Both the position numbers and the translations under genes were made by a program. The notes beneath the pieces were generated by a model. It did not search any database. It saw only the letters and a list, made by a program, of their open reading frames with translations, and had not been told where the DNA came from. Positions 58,068-64,000 of a stretch of 64,000 nt of DNA are shown one piece after another. Every line of letters starts with the position of its first letter. Position 1 is the first letter of the stretch. This DNA comes from Acidimicrobiales bacterium (lineage in GTDB: Bacteria; Actinomycetota; Acidimicrobiia; Acidimicrobiales; RAAP-2). The stretch lies in NCBI GenBank assembly GCA_035534335.1, contig DATLSF010000024.1, forward strand, positions 63,692 to 127,691. Reading direction: 5' to 3'.

Positions 58068-58084
58068 CGGCCATATCGAACGTT

Positions 58085-58104
58085 GCGGGGACTGACCTCC
58101 CCGC
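58085..58104 (+). terminator. Hairpin GCGGGG-N8-CCCCGC after the methyltransferase, possible terminator without a U-tract
   Basis: Perfect 6-bp GC stem 17 nt after the stop codon. Confidence 0.35.
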
Positions 58105-58277
58105 GTGGAGCCCCTGATCAGCGGCGTTCTCCTCGCGCCCCTCCACCCGGACGCCTTCGCCAAAGACCCGCCCGGCGAAGGGAAATCCCAATTCCATTTG
58201 CAATTTGGGCCGAATCCAGCCACAATGACACCGTTGTAATTACATCAGTGGCGGGGGCCGCTAGGGAGGGTTGCACA

Positions 58278-58553
58278 ATGGACATCACCGAATTGCTGAG
58301 TGGCATGGAAGATCGAGGCTGGCAGGCCCGGTCCAACTGCATGGGTGTGGACCCCGACCTCTTTTTCCCCGAGCGAGGCGCCTCCACCCGCGAGGCCAAA
58401 GAGGTCTGCCGGGGCTGCGTGGTGCGTGAGGACTGCCTGGAGTTTGCCCTCGACAATGGGGAGAAGTTCGGCATTTGGGGGGGCATGAGCGAGCGCGAGC
58501 GGCGTCGACTGCGTCGGGCTCGTGCGCTGGAACGTCGCACCCAGGCGAGCTGA
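58278..58553 (+). CDS. whiB: WhiB-family Fe-S transcription factor (WhiB/WhiB2-like)
   Basis: Four Cys (NC...VCRGC...DC), FFPERG, GIWGGMSERERR. ATG 58278 follows GGAGGG. Confidence 0.92.
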   Translation: MDITELLSGMEDRGWQARSNCMGVDPDLFFPERGASTREAKEVCRGCVVREDCLEFALDNGEKFGIWGGMSERERRRLRRARALERRTQAS

Positions 58554-58650: not shown

Positions 58651-59472
58651 CTAGAGGGCAAGTCTCGCCTCAATTGTGGCGTCGGGGCTCAGGTCCAACT
58701 CCACCCAGCGCGACGGATCTTCAGCATCGAGTAATGCTTGAGGCACGAGTCCTACGAGTTCGGCGTGATCGATCTGTCCACTGCCCTCGAGTTTCTCCGC
58801 CACGGCGTCGTACACGAGAGACGGCCGGGCGTTAGGTACGTCAATCAGGTTGCAACTCACCTGAACGTCATCACCGACCTCGAGGGCCAGCGCCCGCACG
58901 TGCGGCCCGCGAACCGCCGCCGCCATCGACTGGGCCCGTTCCAGGCTGACGTCGCGCAACCAAAGATTCCACGCCACCAAGATCGGTCGGCACCCGACCG
59001 CCACTGCGCCCTTGGAGGACGACGCGTCGTTCGGTCCGAGGTCGGGGGCCACTGTCTCAAAGGCGCCCCGACGCACGTCGGGCAGCGTGCGCGCCGTGCC
59101 GTCGCTGAGCGCGCCGTAGAGGAAGACGGGAACGAAGAACGTGTCGGCGAACCACGCGGCGGTCTCGTCTCGCAGCGCACACGCCTGGTCGGGATCCTCG
59201 CCGCCGAGGGCCACGAAGGGCACCACGTCGACGACCCCGAAGCGTGGGTGCACGCCCTGATGGCGGCGCAGATCGATCTTTTGGTACGCGGTGCTGGCCA
59301 AGGTGTGCAGGTCGCTGAGCAGCTGCTCGGGCTCGTTGATCAGCGTGAAGACGCTGCGGTGGTGGTGGCGGTCACGATGCCGGTCGCGCAGCGATTGGCC
59401 GGCCGCGCGCGAGAGCTGCTCGAGGACGGGCAGGTCACGGCCCTCAGAGATATTGACCACGCACTCGAACAC
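58651..59472 (-). CDS. ftcD: Glutamate formimidoyltransferase (FtcD transferase domain only)
   Basis: ECVVNISEGRD, D.HHHRSVFTL, HQGVHPRFG..DVVPF, VGCRPILVAWN, VSCNL, ELVGL. -10 TAGTCT (59484-59479) lies 6 nt upstream. Confidence 0.85.
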   Translation of the reverse strand: MFECVVNISEGRDLPVLEQLSRAAGQSLRDRHRDRHHHRSVFTLINEPEQLLSDLHTLASTAYQKIDLRRHQGVHPRFGVVDVVPFVALGGEDPDQACALRDETAAWFADTFFVPVFLYGALSDGTARTLPDVRRGAFETVAPDLGPNDASSSKGAVAVGCRPILVAWNLWLRDVSLERAQSMAAAVRGPHVRALALEVGDDVQVSCNLIDVPNARPSLVYDAVAEKLEGSGQIDHAELVGLVPQALLDAEDPSRWVELDLSPDATIEARLAL

Positions 59473-59509: not shown

Positions 59510-59758
59510 TTACGACGGGTCGGTGTAGAGGGGGGCGTGACGGCGCAGTCGCGCGATGCGACGGCGCTCGCGCTCGCTCTTGCCACCCCAGACGCCGTGG
59601 TCGACGTGGTTGGCCAGCGCGTACTCCAGACACTGCTCGGCCACCGGGCAGGTGGCGCAGATCTTTTGGGCCTTGATGACGCCGAGACCGTCGCGTGGGA
59701 AGAAGACCCCCGCCGGGTACTCACGGCACTTGCCGTCGGCCATCCATTCGGTGTTCAC
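59510..59758 (-). CDS. Second WhiB-family transcription factor
   Basis: W...GKC...FFP...ICATC...QCLEYA...GVWGG.SERERRR. Start GTG 59758 follows GGAG. Confidence 0.9.
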   Translation of the reverse strand: MNTEWMADGKCREYPAGVFFPRDGLGVIKAQKICATCPVAEQCLEYALANHVDHGVWGGKSERERRRIARLRRHAPLYTDPS

Positions 59759-59778
59759 ACGGAACTCCGGGTGCTCAT
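59755..59778 (-). other. Candidate 7-aa leaderless uORF MSTRSSV* overlapping the whiB start (GTGA)
   Basis: -10 TACGCT (59791-59786), 7 nt, then ATG AGC ACC CGG AGT TCC GTG TGA. Confidence 0.4.
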
Positions 59779-59922
59779 AACGGTCAGCGTAGCCACCGCC
59801 CCTGAGAGAGGACTGTGCAGTCGATTGCAGTTCCGTTACAGTTCTCGACGCCCGATGTAGGCCCCAAGGGGCCTTTCGGTGCGCGCCAGTAGGCTGGCCC
59901 TCGCGATCAGCGAAGGAGTGCC

Positions 59923-60201
59923 GTGAGCCAGGTCCCAATCAGTGAAGCAATCGAGGTCATCGACCCGGTGGGCCACGTCCAGGTCGTCTATCTCGGTCCA
60001 GTCGCCCCGCACTGGGAGTGCCGAATGGTCTTCGGCGACGAAGAGCAGATCCAATCCTTCGTGGACCGCATCGACGCGCGCCTGCGCTTCCTGCCGCCCC
60101 ACGACCCGCAGTTCCGGCGCAACCGTGAGCGGGTCAACCGCGACGCCGAGCGTGAGAACCTGTTGGTGGAGTGGAACCTCGGCTACGAGGAAGAGTCCTA
60201 A
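59923..60201 (+). CDS. Hypothetical small protein
   Basis: 92 aa, AAGGAG SD, -10 TAGGCT at 59890-59895, plausible codon usage. Confidence 0.7.
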   Translation: MSQVPISEAIEVIDPVGHVQVVYLGPVAPHWECRMVFGDEEQIQSFVDRIDARLRFLPPHDPQFRRNRERVNRDAERENLLVEWNLGYEEES

Positions 60202-60210
60202 ACAGCCCGA

Positions 60211-61332
60211 CTAGGCCAGCGGCGACGTCGTGACCCGTTCGTACCAGAGTTCGGGCTTGGTCAGTTCGTCGTAGCTCGGCAGTCCGTCCACGCGCAGCAG
60301 CGCGTCGAACACCGACAGCGAATGGGCCGCAGTGAGCGTGGCCACGAAGGACTGCGCCGCGTCGTGGTGGGCGCCCTGCGTGGAGATCCCAAAGAGCGCC
60401 GCCGCGGCGTCCTCGCCGCGCGCGTCGCTGCGCCGGTGGCGACGGTACGCCTCGACGAGGGCCGGTCGCGGACCCAGCAGCGTCTCGGTGATCTGGTGGG
60501 CGGCCGCGTCGAAGAAGGCCAGCAGCACGCTCGTCGCGGCGTTGAGCGCGCGCGTCGCCGCTGAGTCCTCCGGCACGGTGATGCCCTCCAACAGTGCTTC
60601 GGGGTTCTGCATCAGTGACGACAGGTCGTCGGGGTTGACGAGTGAGGAGAGCCGGTCCAACAGGTCGCCCTGAGCCGCCGCGGCCTCGCGCACGCCGTCG
60701 AGCAGCAACGCGCGCAACGCGTCACCGGTGCCCGGCTGGGACAGTACCAGCGACGCCACGAACTCCTGGGCCATCGCGAAGACGTAGACCTCATCACGCT
60801 CCAGCGACCACGACTCGCAGAAGGTCGCGAGGTTGTTGACCACCACGAGACGCTCGTCGTTCTCTCGCGGCAGCGCCAGTGCGGCCAGGGACCACGCGCG
60901 CTCGGTGAAGTGGCCGGCGACCGAGCCCATCTGGAACCCGGTGAAGAGTGGACCCAGGGCCGCCACCATCTGGGCCAGCACGGGACCCTGGTCGTCGTCG
61001 AGGTCTTCGGGAAGCGCCAGGGTGCGCGTGACGATGGGCTCGATCAGTGGTCGCCACTGCGCCAGGGCCGCGACCGCCAGCGCGGAGCGGTTGATCGCGG
61101 TGACCTTCGGCTCGCGTGCCACTGAGAAGATTGCGTCGACGTGGCGGCCCACCAGGGGCGCCCACTCCTCGAGACGCTGACGCTCCACCGGCTGGGGATT
61201 GGGGTCACCGTCCTCGCCGCGCGCGATCGACAGCGCCAGCTGGGTGGCGGTGTCGAACCACGCGTTCGGCCCCTGTTGGCCCAGGAGGTTGAAGATGTCC
61301 CCAAAGAAGCCGCCAAAGGGGTTGTCGGTCAC
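60211..61332 (-). CDS. DUF2342 (zinc-metalloprotease-like) protein lacking the HExxH motif
   Basis: W...QLALSIA...DPNP, FTGFQMGS..GH...A, LVVVNNL..F...W. The motif position reads MAQEFVA. Confidence 0.7.
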   Translation of the reverse strand: MTDNPFGGFFGDIFNLLGQQGPNAWFDTATQLALSIARGEDGDPNPQPVERQRLEEWAPLVGRHVDAIFSVAREPKVTAINRSALAVAALAQWRPLIEPIVTRTLALPEDLDDDQGPVLAQMVAALGPLFTGFQMGSVAGHFTERAWSLAALALPRENDERLVVVNNLATFCESWSLERDEVYVFAMAQEFVASLVLSQPGTGDALRALLLDGVREAAAAQGDLLDRLSSLVNPDDLSSLMQNPEALLEGITVPEDSAATRALNAATSVLLAFFDAAAHQITETLLGPRPALVEAYRRHRRSDARGEDAAAALFGISTQGAHHDAAQSFVATLTAAHSLSVFDALLRVDGLPSYDELTKPELWYERVTTSPLA

Positions 61333-61341
61333 CAAAACAAC

Positions 61342-62430
61342 CTAGAGGGCACAGGCGAGTATGACCACGGCGTGGTGTGTCACCGAGCCGCGCAGGAAGG
61401 CGATGTTGGTCAGTGCGCCGGCGGGCGTCAGGTAGAGCGCGGTGAGGAGGGAGTTCCAATTCTCGATGCTGTGCCCGGCAACCTTGAGGACCACGTCGCC
61501 CGCACGCAAGAAGCCGGTGGCGCTGCCGTGTCGGGCCACCGACGTGACCATCACGCCGCCGCCCTGAGCGCTGGTGCCCGTGATGCCCAGGCTCGAGTGG
61601 CAGCCGTTGCCGGTCGCCACGATGTCGGCGACGCGCGCGACGAACTGCGCCGAGTACCACAGGTGATTGGCCGAGAGCACGGCGACGACCGTTCCGTTGG
61701 CGTCGACCGCCACGGCGTCGGTCAACGCGTTCAGGTTCCAGTGCGGCTGCGTGGCCAGGTAGCTCACGACGCCGTTGGCGGTGAGCGTGGGGTCGCCGAG
61801 GGTGGTGGCCGCGGACACGAATCGCAGCGGTGCGCTGGCCGAGGTGACGATCGGAGCGACCGCGGTGACCGACGCCGCGGCGGGAAGCGGACCCAACTTC
61901 AACGCCGGCACGCCGACGCCAAGGCGCACGATGGAAAAGCCCATGGTGTCGTCGTATCCCACCCAGGTCACCGGGACGCGGGCCCTGGTTGCCGTCGAGG
62001 CGAAGAGGAGGGCGCCGTGGGGGATCGGCGAGGTGGTGACCGCGAGATTGTTGGCCAACACCATCGCGGCCACGGTGTAGATGTGACCGGGGCCGGGGTC
62101 GGTGATGGTCAGATCCACCGTCCTCGCGGCGGCCTGTTGCGCCACGGCCGGAAGGTGGGACCAGGTCACCGCCGTCTGCGTGAGCATGTCGATGTTGCTG
62201 GGTGTGACGCCGCGCGTCGAGGCGAGGCCCGCCCCGCCCGCCAACAGGGCGACGACCGTGACCGACGCCAACACCGCCGCGACGCGTGATCGAAGGCGCT
62301 TACGGGTGGCCGCCAGGGAGTCAAAACTGGGCAGTTCACTGGGGTGCATCCACGCCCGCTCGCCCGCCGGCGGCGGCGCGCCGTGGCGCCGCCACGGCAG
62401 CCACGCAGACGTTCGAGAGACCCAACCCAT
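61342..62430 (-). CDS. Membrane-anchored trypsin-like/PDZ protein (HtrA-like, no recognisable catalytic triad)
   Basis: WMHPSE, TM, trypsin-like fold remnants (VGYD..GFSIVRL, VDANGTVV), PDZ (LGITG, GGVMV.SV, LRAGDVV). Confidence 0.65.
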   Translation of the reverse strand: MGWVSRTSAWLPWRRHGAPPPAGERAWMHPSELPSFDSLAATRKRLRSRVAAVLASVTVVALLAGGAGLASTRGVTPSNIDMLTQTAVTWSHLPAVAQQAAARTVDLTITDPGPGHIYTVAAMVLANNLAVTTSPIPHGALLFASTATRARVPVTWVGYDDTMGFSIVRLGVGVPALKLGPLPAAASVTAVAPIVTSASAPLRFVSAATTLGDPTLTANGVVSYLATQPHWNLNALTDAVAVDANGTVVAVLSANHLWYSAQFVARVADIVATGNGCHSSLGITGTSAQGGGVMVTSVARHGSATGFLRAGDVVLKVAGHSIENWNSLLTALYLTPAGALTNIAFLRGSVTHHAVVILACAL

Positions 62431-62489
62431 GATTTTCAAGGCTAGTTAGCGAAAGGCCTTGCAAACAGGTCGCTCTAGCATCGTTGGCT

Positions 62490-63494
62490 ATGGCCACCGA
62501 CGTTGCACTCGACGTGGGCACGGGCTGGACCCGATTGGCGAGCGCCGACGAGGGGCTGCTGTTCAACGAGCCGACGATCGTGGCCATCGACACGCGCTCG
62601 GGCGAAGTTGTCGAGCTCGGCTTCGGTGCGTTGGACCTCGTCGCGAGAACCTCGCGTCACGTCATCGCATTTCGTCCGCTCTCCCAAGGTGCCACCGTCG
62701 ACTTCGACGTGACGGCACGACTTCTGTCGGGGCTCTTCGACCGGGCGGGCATCTCCAAGATCAGTCGCGTGCGCGCCCTGATGAGCGTCCCGTCCCTGGC
62801 TACGCCCATCGAGCGTCGGGCCTTGCGCCAGGCGGCGATTCAGGCCGGCGCGCGTGAGGTCAGCCTGCTCGAGGCGCCCCTGGCCGCGGCGATCGGTTTG
62901 GGTCTGCCGGTCCAGGACCCCGTTGGTTCGGCCGTCACCGTGCTCGGCGCAGGTGCGTCAGAAGCGGCGTTGCTCTCGTTGGGTGGGATTGTGACGTCGG
63001 CGACTCGACGACACGGTGGTGTCGACCTTGATGCGGCCATCGCGTCGCTGCTTCGGCAACGTCACGGTGTCGTCGTCTCACCCGCCGTGACCGAGGCGTT
63101 GAAGGTGAACCTGGGATCGGCGCGCGGACTCACGCGCGGCCTCACCGAGGAGGTGGTCGCGCGCACGGTGAGCCGCGGCGAGCCGGTGCGACTGACCGTG
63201 GGCGCCGACCTCGTCAACGTCGCGCTGCACGACGTCGTGGCTTCCACGGTGCGGATGGTCCAGGACTCCTTGGCCGACGCGCCGCCGGACCTCTCCCAGG
63301 ACGTCAGCGCACGAGGACTCACGCTGGTGGGCGGTCTGTCGCGTCTCGGTGACCTGGCCGACCTGATCTCGACGAACACCGGTGTCGAGATCCGCGTGGC
63401 CGACGACCCGGAGCTCGTCGTGATCCGAGGACTGCAACTGTGCCTGGAGGAGATGTCCTCGCTGCACCCGTTGTTCCGCGACGCCGACCTCTAA
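62490..63494 (+). CDS. mreB: MreB-like actin-fold protein, solo paralog with degenerate ATPase motifs
   Basis: LDVGT, NEPTIVAID, RPL..G, ATPIERRAL..A..AGAREV, AAAIG.GLPV, PPDLSQD...RGLTLVGG, ADDP. Confidence 0.85.
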   Translation: MATDVALDVGTGWTRLASADEGLLFNEPTIVAIDTRSGEVVELGFGALDLVARTSRHVIAFRPLSQGATVDFDVTARLLSGLFDRAGISKISRVRALMSVPSLATPIERRALRQAAIQAGAREVSLLEAPLAAAIGLGLPVQDPVGSAVTVLGAGASEAALLSLGGIVTSATRRHGGVDLDAAIASLLRQRHGVVVSPAVTEALKVNLGSARGLTRGLTEEVVARTVSRGEPVRLTVGADLVNVALHDVVASTVRMVQDSLADAPPDLSQDVSARGLTLVGGLSRLGDLADLISTNTGVEIRVADDPELVVIRGLQLCLEEMSSLHPLFRDADL

Positions 63495-64000
63495 AGCTCG
63501 TCGTCACCGAGTTGGTCGGCGGCTGCACGCACCTGCCAATCACGGTCCTCGCGCGCTCGCGCCAGCGCCGCCTCGACGTCGGGCCCCTCAAAGTTGGCCA
63601 GTGCCACGACCGCGCGACGCCGAACCGGCGGCTTGTCGTCCAGTGCCGCGATGATGGCCTCGCGGCCCCGGTCGTCGCCGAGTGTCCCGAGGGCGGCGAC
63701 GGCCGCCTCACGACACCGGGCGTCCGCGTGGTGGCCCGCCACTCGCACCAGATCGTCCACTGCCGCGACGACCAATCGCTCACCCAGGGCGAAGGCGGCC
63801 GCGTCCACGACGAGTGCATCGGCGTCGTCGAGCGCCTCGACCATGGCCGCGCGCACCGCGTCGTCGTCGGATCCGTCGTGCGCGTAGAGCGTGAGGGCGT
63901 CGCGACGCACCTCGGCGCTCGCGTCGGTCATCGCACGACGCCACGCCGCTGGGCTGAGCAGGTGGCGTTGAGCCCCCGCGCGCAGCGCGAGGACGCGAGC
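63491..64000 (-). CDS. HEAT-repeat protein, 5' end beyond the window
   Basis: Repeated VRRxA/CREAAVAALG/VRRRAVVALA/WQVRAAA units. The frame is open to nt 64000. Confidence 0.8.
   Translation of the reverse strand, partial: ARVLALRAGAQRHLLSPAAWRRAMTDASAEVRRDALTLYAHDGSDDDAVRAAMVEALDDADALVVDAAAFALGERLVVAAVDDLVRVAGHHADARCREAAVAALGTLGDDRGREAIIAALDDKPPVRRRAVVALANFEGPDVEAALARAREDRDWQVRAAADQLGDDEL

Follow-up and report, generated by a model that had tools for sequence, protein, structure and literature searches.

An MreB-like gene in a soil and peat genus of Acidimicrobiales represents a natural, well-supported MreB lineage that lacks the hydrolysis motif and has a clear evolutionary trajectory. The gene lies in a window of 64,000 nucleotides from an Acidimicrobiales bacterium (assembly GCA_035534335.1, contig DATLSF010000024.1, forward strand, positions 63,692 to 127,691). 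Coordinates are positions in this window unless otherwise said. The gene encodes a divergent second paralog of 334 amino acids (aa). We find that the evidence as a whole is best explained by a functional, selected and highly diverged ortholog of MreB2, the second MreB paralog of this bacterial class. The protein would most likely hold nucleotide without hydrolysing it and act as a polymer or scaffold, a reading to which we assign a probability of about 0.6. By analogy, it would belong to an already-known kind, the low-ATPase paralog typified by MreB3 of Spiroplasma.

All three residues associated with hydrolysis are replaced in this protein. Residues were aligned to Caulobacter crescentus MreB (CcMreB) with HMMER and to the canonical MreB of the same genome with MAFFT. 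The catalytic motif, LIDEPM or IIEEPM in these proteins, reads LLEAPL, which places A129 at the catalytic Glu (CcMreB E140, equivalent to E136 of Bacillus subtilis MreB [BsMreB] and to actin Q137). The phosphate-2 motif has V151 at the position of its Asp (CcMreB D162, BsMreB D158), and A156 stands at the water-positioning CcMreB T167. The published E...T-X-[D/E] hydrolysis motif (CcMreB E140, T167, and E169) consequently reads A129...A156-S-E158 and is absent. An earlier note on this stretch, made by eye, had claimed the changes from IEEP to LEAP, from VVDIGGGTTE to VTVLGAGASE, and from TGGG to VGGL. Both alignments return the first two at exactly the codons it gave, and the third is likewise seen in alignment. 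The replacement at T167 and the change from GERTAE to SPAVTE in the adenosine-1 helix go beyond that note.

The same states recur throughout the genus. We aligned 72 full-length genus sequences together, and a 73rd (L133) was fetched later. They were taken from metagenome-assembled genomes (MAGs) of palsa, bog, fen, and Danish soils that bear the label Acidimicrobiales or Acidimicrobiaceae. MAG copies split by frameshifts (L024, L025, L102, and L103) were excluded from the counts. Position 129 is Ala in 70 of the 72 orthologs and Ser in two, with Thr in L133, and is Glu or Gln in none. Position 151 is usually hydrophobic (Val 37, Leu 26, Ile 4, Met 3, Thr 1, and one gap; Cys in L133) and never Asp. 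Ala occupies position 156 in 70/72 orthologs. The first two positions of the hydrolysis motif in the clade are A, S, or T, followed by A. The G-E-x-T of the adenosine-1 helix is also gone, with P198 in 71/72 orthologs. The third Gly of the adenosine-2 motif, position 283, is never Gly (His 47, Gln 10, Leu 4, Ser 3, Met 3, Val 3, Phe 1, and Pro 1). Hsp70 (GGS or GGQ) and actin (GGT) likewise lack a third Gly, and we therefore give this change little weight as a sign of lost adenosine binding.

Much of the remaining pocket is retained. The phosphate-1 residues D8, G10, and T11 (D-x-G-T) are invariant in 72/72 orthologs, while T14 alternates among T, S, and C. E128 and E158 are invariant. E202 and K205, the equivalents of CcMreB E213 and K216, are found in 70/72 and 71/72 orthologs, respectively. 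In CcMreB numbering, clade conservation reaches 99-100% at D16, G18, and T19 of phosphate-1; at G164, G166, and E169 of phosphate-2; at E213 and K216 of the adenosine helix; and at G294 and G295 of adenosine-2. The dimerisation helix (ATPIERRALRQAAIQAGA) is among the best conserved segments, and within it I107, the equivalent of CcMreB V118, is invariant in the clade.

The gene is intact and under purifying selection. It has no interruption between start and stop, and the N-termini of orthologs (MAxDVALD) match its ATG start, two codons 3' of an in-frame TTG at 62484. We calculated pairwise ratios of nonsynonymous to synonymous substitution (dN/dS) by the Nei-Gojobori method on the multiple alignment. 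These are 0.013, 0.068, and 0.088 against orthologs at 99, 93, and 91% identity, with a median of 0.18 over the 1906 pairs with unsaturated synonymous divergence. The unusual residues and the few frameshifted MAG copies, which resemble assembly artefacts, might suggest a decaying pseudogene, an accident of this lineage, or an error of sequencing or assembly. We reject decay and sequencing error, and regard this explanation as having practically no chance of being correct, because a full-length open frame with the same substitutions is kept in about 70 independent assemblies at dN/dS values of 0.01-0.2. Thus, the substitutions first read in one genome are conserved across the clade, with Glu, Gln, and Asp missing from the respective positions of all 73 orthologs, and they stand in a gene whose dN/dS is below 1. 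Given the strong purifying selection elsewhere, the frameshifts in the four excluded copies are probably assembly errors. A promoter and terminator scan of 62200-63700 detected nothing.

Profile and predicted fold both place the protein in the MreB family. It matches Pfam MreB_Mbl (PF06723) over residues 3-325 with 260.9 bits against a cut-off of 27. A HMMER search against solved structures aligns it end to end with the MreBs of C. crescentus, Geobacillus, and Thermotoga maritima (E 1e-50 to 1e-54, ~35% identity), while Hsp70-family matches in the same search are much weaker. An AlphaFold2 model, predicted from an alignment of 50 orthologs, resembles the solved MreBs (C. crescentus 4czj/4czl, T. 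maritima 1jcg, and Geobacillus 8azg) with template modelling (TM) scores of 0.79-0.84. The top 25 Foldseek matches of the model in the PDB are all MreB or Mbl (TM 0.74-0.84), with MamK, actin, and Hsp70 lower. The view that the rest of the fold aligns well, taken earlier by eye, is thus borne out by profile, alignment to MreBs of solved structure, and model. The protein is nevertheless not a canonical MreB by curated cut-offs, as it misses those of both NCBIfam models (NF010539, 260 vs 293; TIGR00904, 231.7 vs 365.75). It also lacks the hydrolysis motif, the phosphate-2 Asp, and linkage to mreCD.

A canonical MreB is encoded elsewhere in the genome. The assembly (2.08 Mb, 38 contigs, 92% complete) has three matches to PF06723: the MreB-like gene, a canonical MreB on contig C33 (496 bits), and an open frame of 628 residues (69 bits), whose size and weak score suggest DnaK. 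The canonical copy has IIEEPM, VDIGGGTTE, and TGGG. It lies in the order folC-ndk-mreB-mreC, and the place of mreD after it is taken by a 175-aa open reading frame (ORF) without a Pfam match. Neither mreC nor mreD is present beside the MreB-like gene, whose neighbours are a divergent PDZ gene, a Zincin_2-like gene, and a convergent HEAT-repeat gene. The earlier note had described a solo paralog. The gene does stand away from mreC and mreD; it is not solo in the genome, which also holds the canonical MreB that the note supposed. Two MreB homologs are found in 40 of 41 related genomes.

The MreB-like gene is the positional ortholog of MreB2. Our alignment separates three groups: canonical MreBs, the second paralog of the order's other families (MreB2), and the genus copies. 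MreB2 of the other families reads IEQP, with Gln at the catalytic position, and keeps VDIGGGT(T/S)E, GERTAE, and VGGGG. All 14 aligned MreB2 copies (L030-L043) have IEQP, the state of eukaryotic actin Q137. MreB2 proteins are 68-82% identical to one another across the class, and several families are without MreB2. The copies of the family studied here are only ~38-40% identical to MreB2, below canonical MreB (58%). MreB2 and the genus copies are alike in their short N-terminus, LVGG motif, APP(D/E)L(S/A)QD segment, and C-terminal tail. Searching with a Gln-type paralog as query matched only Acidimicrobiia MAG proteins named "rod shape-determining protein", and a cluster look-up yielded nothing further. 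Positional orthology is based on the shared HEAT, Zincin_2, and PDZ neighbours. The HEAT gene adjoins the paralog in the genus loci and in 8/14 loci of other families, where a Zincin_2-like gene lies within 3 kb in 3/14 and a PDZ gene in 1/14. None of the three genes was found beside canonical mreB (0/10 loci). These comparisons indicate that the MreB-like gene descends from an old Gln-bearing paralog and not directly from canonical MreB.

Related sequences show intermediate states. A protein from a sister genus of the same family (L136) has the catalytic Gln, the phosphate-2 Asp, and GGG, with Lys at T167. A second sequence (P0129) has catalytic Ala and GGA, again with Lys at T167, and keeps the Asp. 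The third, a fragment (P0123), has the catalytic Gln, has lost the Asp, and reads Val at T167 and GGH. The losses were thus stepwise, and their order differed between lineages.

Other relatives of the paralog are unusual in different ways. Two f39 genomes from different genera have Gln-type paralog genes with a single in-frame TAG (in those genomes' own coordinates, G123:C43:65888-66877 and G095:C4:630270-631259). These genes are full length, with 75% identity to the query, and the TAG could reflect a shared pseudogene, a start-site artefact, or recoding. A 1010-aa metagenomic protein (P0125) has an MreB-like domain at residues 683-995 with the degenerate motifs VEQTM and IVAIGGDVTQ. It appears to be an MreB-like module fused to a long N-terminal region.

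Work on other MreBs indicates what the replaced residues do. In CcMreB, E140 and T167 position the attacking water (PMC4051119; PMC9597168), as does actin Q137 at the position of the MreB catalytic Glu (PMC9597168). Loss of E...T-X-[D/E] has been used to explain the low ATPase activity and slow release of inorganic phosphate (Pi) of Spiroplasma MreB3 (PMC9597168). BsMreB E136A and D158A, cited in the earlier note as ATPase-impaired laboratory mutants, are described as such: Pi release is markedly reduced, while polymerisation kinetics are those of the wild type (bioRxiv 10.64898/2026.07.24.740542). The two differ in their nucleotide binding. E136A binds nucleotide more tightly, and its hyperstable filaments withstand ADP as well as ATP depletion; D158A shows weak ATP and undetectable ADP binding, and its largely nucleotide-free filaments disassemble faster (bioRxiv 10.64898/2026.07.24.740542). 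By analogy with these mutants, a protein without all three residues would probably not hydrolyse nucleotide at a useful rate.

We propose the following trajectory. MreB2 in other families evolves slowly and already had the actin state, Gln, at the catalytic position. On the stem of the family, change reached about 40% of the sites that both MreB groups otherwise conserve; in the genus, 49 of the 123 sites conserved in both canonical MreBs and other-family second paralogs differ. The genus lost all three organisers of Mg2+ and attacking water (Glu/Gln to Ala, Thr to Ala, and the phosphate-2 Asp to a hydrophobic residue). What it retained is the MreB fold, together with the framework of the phosphate loops, the dimerisation helix, and E202 and K205 as presumed ribose contacts. 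Such a protein would still hold nucleotide weakly, or keep the geometry of the pocket, without hydrolysis. It would form an MreB-like polymer or scaffold whose stability depends on neither ATP turnover nor the ATP/ADP ratio. This polymer or scaffold would act beside intact mreBCD, probably with the PDZ, Zincin_2-like, and HEAT neighbours, although both polymer formation and the choice of partners are speculative. The role given to it in the earlier note, that of a scaffold or modulator of canonical MreB, is likewise conjectural.

Several observations weigh against this explanation. The AlphaFold2 model is of moderate confidence (predicted local distance difference test 74, predicted TM score 0.76) and is poorest in subdomain IB (residues 40-70) and near the phosphate-2 loop (150-175). 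The equivalent of CcMreB S283, an intra-protofilament residue, is Gln in both paralog groups, and the amphipathic extension at the N-terminus of the canonical copy has no counterpart in the protein, so that neither polymerisation nor membrane binding is assured. The membrane-insertion loop has a single hydrophobic residue with basic residues on either side, the second hydrophobic residue having been lost. Change is not significantly more frequent in the nucleotide motifs (15/34 sites) than elsewhere (34/89; Fisher p = 0.68). With divergence spread over the whole protein, the loss of catalytic residues may belong to a wider shift in function without being its core, and on the same count we dropped the idea of decay confined to the pocket. 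In a maximum-likelihood tree (IQ-TREE), the stem of the genus is ~1.2 changes per site long and falls outside the Gln-paralog group, a placement that comes with a warning of long-branch attraction. The tree thus neither supports nor refutes orthology, which rests on synteny. The source organism is uncultured.

Two of the alternatives concern the pocket. The earlier note had suggested that the protein is perhaps nucleotide-free, which would make it a static adaptor or scaffold, polymeric or not, with a pocket that binds nothing. The Mg2+-organising Asp, the catalytic Glu or Gln, the Thr, the adenosine-1 GExT, and the third Gly of GGG are indeed all gone. CcMreB crystallises as an empty double filament (4cze), and D158A alone lowers the ATP affinity of BsMreB, leaves no detectable ADP binding, and yields mostly nucleotide-free filaments (bioRxiv 10.64898/2026.07.24.740542). 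However, D-x-G-T of phosphate-1, G-x-G and E158 of phosphate-2, E202/K205, and G281/G282 are 97-100% conserved, which is unexpected without a ligand, though possibly structural. E136A also raises nucleotide affinity and might offset the loss of the Asp (bioRxiv 10.64898/2026.07.24.740542). We therefore consider an empty pocket unlikely. As the pocket framework is under constraint, we lean, by a little better than even odds, toward a protein that binds nucleotide and cannot hydrolyse it. A slow but active nucleoside triphosphatase, with water activated by other residues such as E128 or E158, strikes us as improbable. The invariance of both residues and the strong purifying selection, which indicates that some function is conserved, are in its favour, and the ancestral Gln paralog resembles actin, which hydrolyses ATP with Q137. 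Nevertheless, the side chain of E128, adjacent to position 129 on a beta strand, should face away from the gamma-phosphate. At the Asp position the residue varies between V, L, I, M, T, and C, as expected where a chemical role is missing. Moreover, either E136A or D158A already cuts Pi release markedly in BsMreB, and Spiroplasma MreB3 owes its low activity to the loss of E and T, while three residues are lost here.

A further alternative holds that the cytoskeletal role was abandoned altogether, leaving a non-polymerising regulator of the acetate and sugar kinase/Hsp70/actin (ASKHA) fold or a chaperone-like partner of the PDZ, Zincin_2-like, and HEAT proteins. The change at 49/123 conserved sites, the tightly conserved four-gene neighbourhood, the missing N-terminal extension, and the lost hydrophobic residue of the membrane loop would fit such a role. 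Yet by sequence and by fold its best matches are MreBs throughout, well above Hsp70, MamK, FtsA, and EutJ. Few segments are conserved as well as the dimerisation helix, whose V118-equivalent is still hydrophobic; in CcMreB, the mutation V118E breaks double filaments (PMC4051119). We hold this loss of the cytoskeletal role to be a poor prospect beside a nucleotide-holding, non-hydrolysing polymer or scaffold.

The neighbourhood of the MreB-like gene is conserved (Table 1). The PDZ gene, divergent from it across a 50-bp gap, keeps its synteny in L132 and in every genus locus that was checked. Pfam and PDB searches with the PDZ protein found no protease domain, and its PDB matches are confined to the PDZ domain. 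The layout of this protein recalls HtrA-like PDZ proteases, and its central ~200 residues match no protease domain in Pfam or the PDB. HExxH is absent from the Zincin_2-like copy, which reads AQEFV, and from eight aligned orthologs (L034, L036, L039, L054, L056, L070, L005, and L132). Zincin_2 copies of other families read HELTSH, NEITHH, or VADVS at this place. The Zincin_2 neighbour may be a degenerate metallopeptidase across the whole order. Upstream, the order of WhiB, formiminotransferase-like, WhiB, and 92-aa genes, 5' of the Zincin_2, PDZ, and MreB-like genes, is kept across the genus and on contig L132. The complete order from the first WhiB gene to the MreB-like gene also occurs on the unrelated metagenome contig that carries P0129.

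Table 1. Features of the MreB-like gene and its neighbourhood, in window coordinates.
Feature	Position	Strand	Details
WhiB-family gene	58083-58553	+	
Formiminotransferase-like (FTCD_N) gene	58651-59472	-	
WhiB-family gene	59510-59938	-	
92-aa ORF	59923-60201	+	Conserved; no Pfam match
Zincin_2-like protein	60211-61335	-	PF10103, 93 bits; without HExxH
PDZ-domain protein	61342-62439	-	365 aa; predicted N-terminal membrane segment; Pfam PDZ only, residues 281-359
MreB-family ORF, divergent second paralog	62490-63494	+	ATG start, TAA stop, 334 aa, no interruption
Phosphate-1 motif, retained	62511-62531	+	D8-V-G10-T11-G-W-T14
A129, catalytic Glu position	62874-62876	+	Codon GCG; CcMreB E140, BsMreB E136, actin Q137
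V151, phosphate-2 Asp position	62940-62942	+	Codon GTG; CcMreB D162, BsMreB D158
A156, water-positioning Thr position	62955-62957	+	Codon GCG; CcMreB T167
Adenosine-1 helix	63075-63104	+	GERTAExxK replaced by S197-P-A-V-T-E202-A-L-K205 (SPAVTE)
Adenosine-2 motif	63330-63338	+	GGG replaced by G281-G282-L283 (LTGGGAL to LVGGLSR); L283 codon CTG, 63336-63338
HEAT-repeat protein	63491-63931	-	Pfam HEAT_2; convergent, 3' end overlaps the MreB-like stop by 4 nt

A bolder and, in our judgement, doubtful possibility is that the protein forms nucleotide-state-independent filaments, assembled at any ATP/ADP ratio, at the core of an undescribed envelope module of Acidimicrobiia. The module would be mostly catalytically degenerate: its Zincin_2-like member lacks HExxH, its PDZ membrane protein has no detectable protease domain, and a HEAT-repeat protein would complete it. 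If so, it would run parallel to the MreBCD elongasome and could, for example, help cells starved of energy in peat and soil to keep their shape or the organisation of their envelope.

What ATP hydrolysis contributes to MreB function continues to be debated. In a 2026 preprint, BsMreB E136A cells are reported to keep a normal rod shape, and hydrolysis to serve mainly for disassembly (bioRxiv 10.64898/2026.07.24.740542). The genus described here provides a natural experiment, as an MreB-fold protein that lacks the phosphate-2 Asp and the Glu and Thr of the hydrolysis motif persists beside an intact MreB. Sister lineages add the steps in between: Gln only, Gln with Thr to Lys, and Ala with the Asp kept. 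Together they offer ready-made sequences for testing which residues underlie nucleotide affinity, hydrolysis, and filament stability, and the clade may bear on how cells use a hydrolysis-free MreB. E...T-X-[D/E] has been described as conserved in MreBs except Spiroplasma MreB3 (PMC9597168). We find E, D, and T all kept in only 50 of the 146 nearest 50%-identity cluster representatives that cover the positions, with the Asp missing in 35 and Gln in 34/150, in a sample that was ranked by similarity to the degenerate query and so over-represents such proteins. The published claim is too narrow, and MreB-like clades without the motif are not rare.

The protein resembles canonical MreBs in its Pfam family and in its predicted four-subdomain actin fold (TM 0.79-0.84). 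It also shares their phosphate-1 DxGT, phosphate-2 G-x-G...E, adenosine-helix E...K, GG, and a hydrophobic residue at the V118 position. It differs from them in being only 33-35% identical; in lacking E140, D162, and T167 (CcMreB numbering), GExT, and the third Gly; in lacking the N-terminal extension and mreCD linkage; and in scoring below the NCBIfam cut-offs. MreB2, in contrast, keeps D162, T167, GGG, and GERTAE and has Gln at E140, all of which the genus copies have lost. The Gln of ancestral MreB2 corresponds to eukaryotic actin Q137, whereas the genus has Ala, Ser, or Thr there, and actin differs in family and filament architecture.

Spiroplasma MreB3 (SpeMreB3; 7e1c/7e1g) is likewise a natural paralog that stands beside active paralogs without E...T-X-[D/E]. 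Its structure is also a fold match to our model (TM 0.77-0.79), and it is described as polymerising upon nucleotide binding (PMC9597168). Its Thr to Lys change recurs in L136 and P0129. The lineage is unrelated (wall-less Mollicutes, 24% identity), and its motif reads D...K where that of the genus reads A...A. Our protein shares with SpeMreB3 the coexistence with a canonical MreB and the absence of the motif, and the likeness is one of function only, with no phylogenetic relation. BsMreB E136A and D158A are altered at two of the same positions, but singly, by design, and in a canonical background. In the genus, both changes and the Thr to Ala change occur naturally, in combination, and within a protein that has diverged throughout. 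SpeMreB3 is the closest described functional counterpart of this protein, and BsMreB E136A and D158A are its closest engineered ones.

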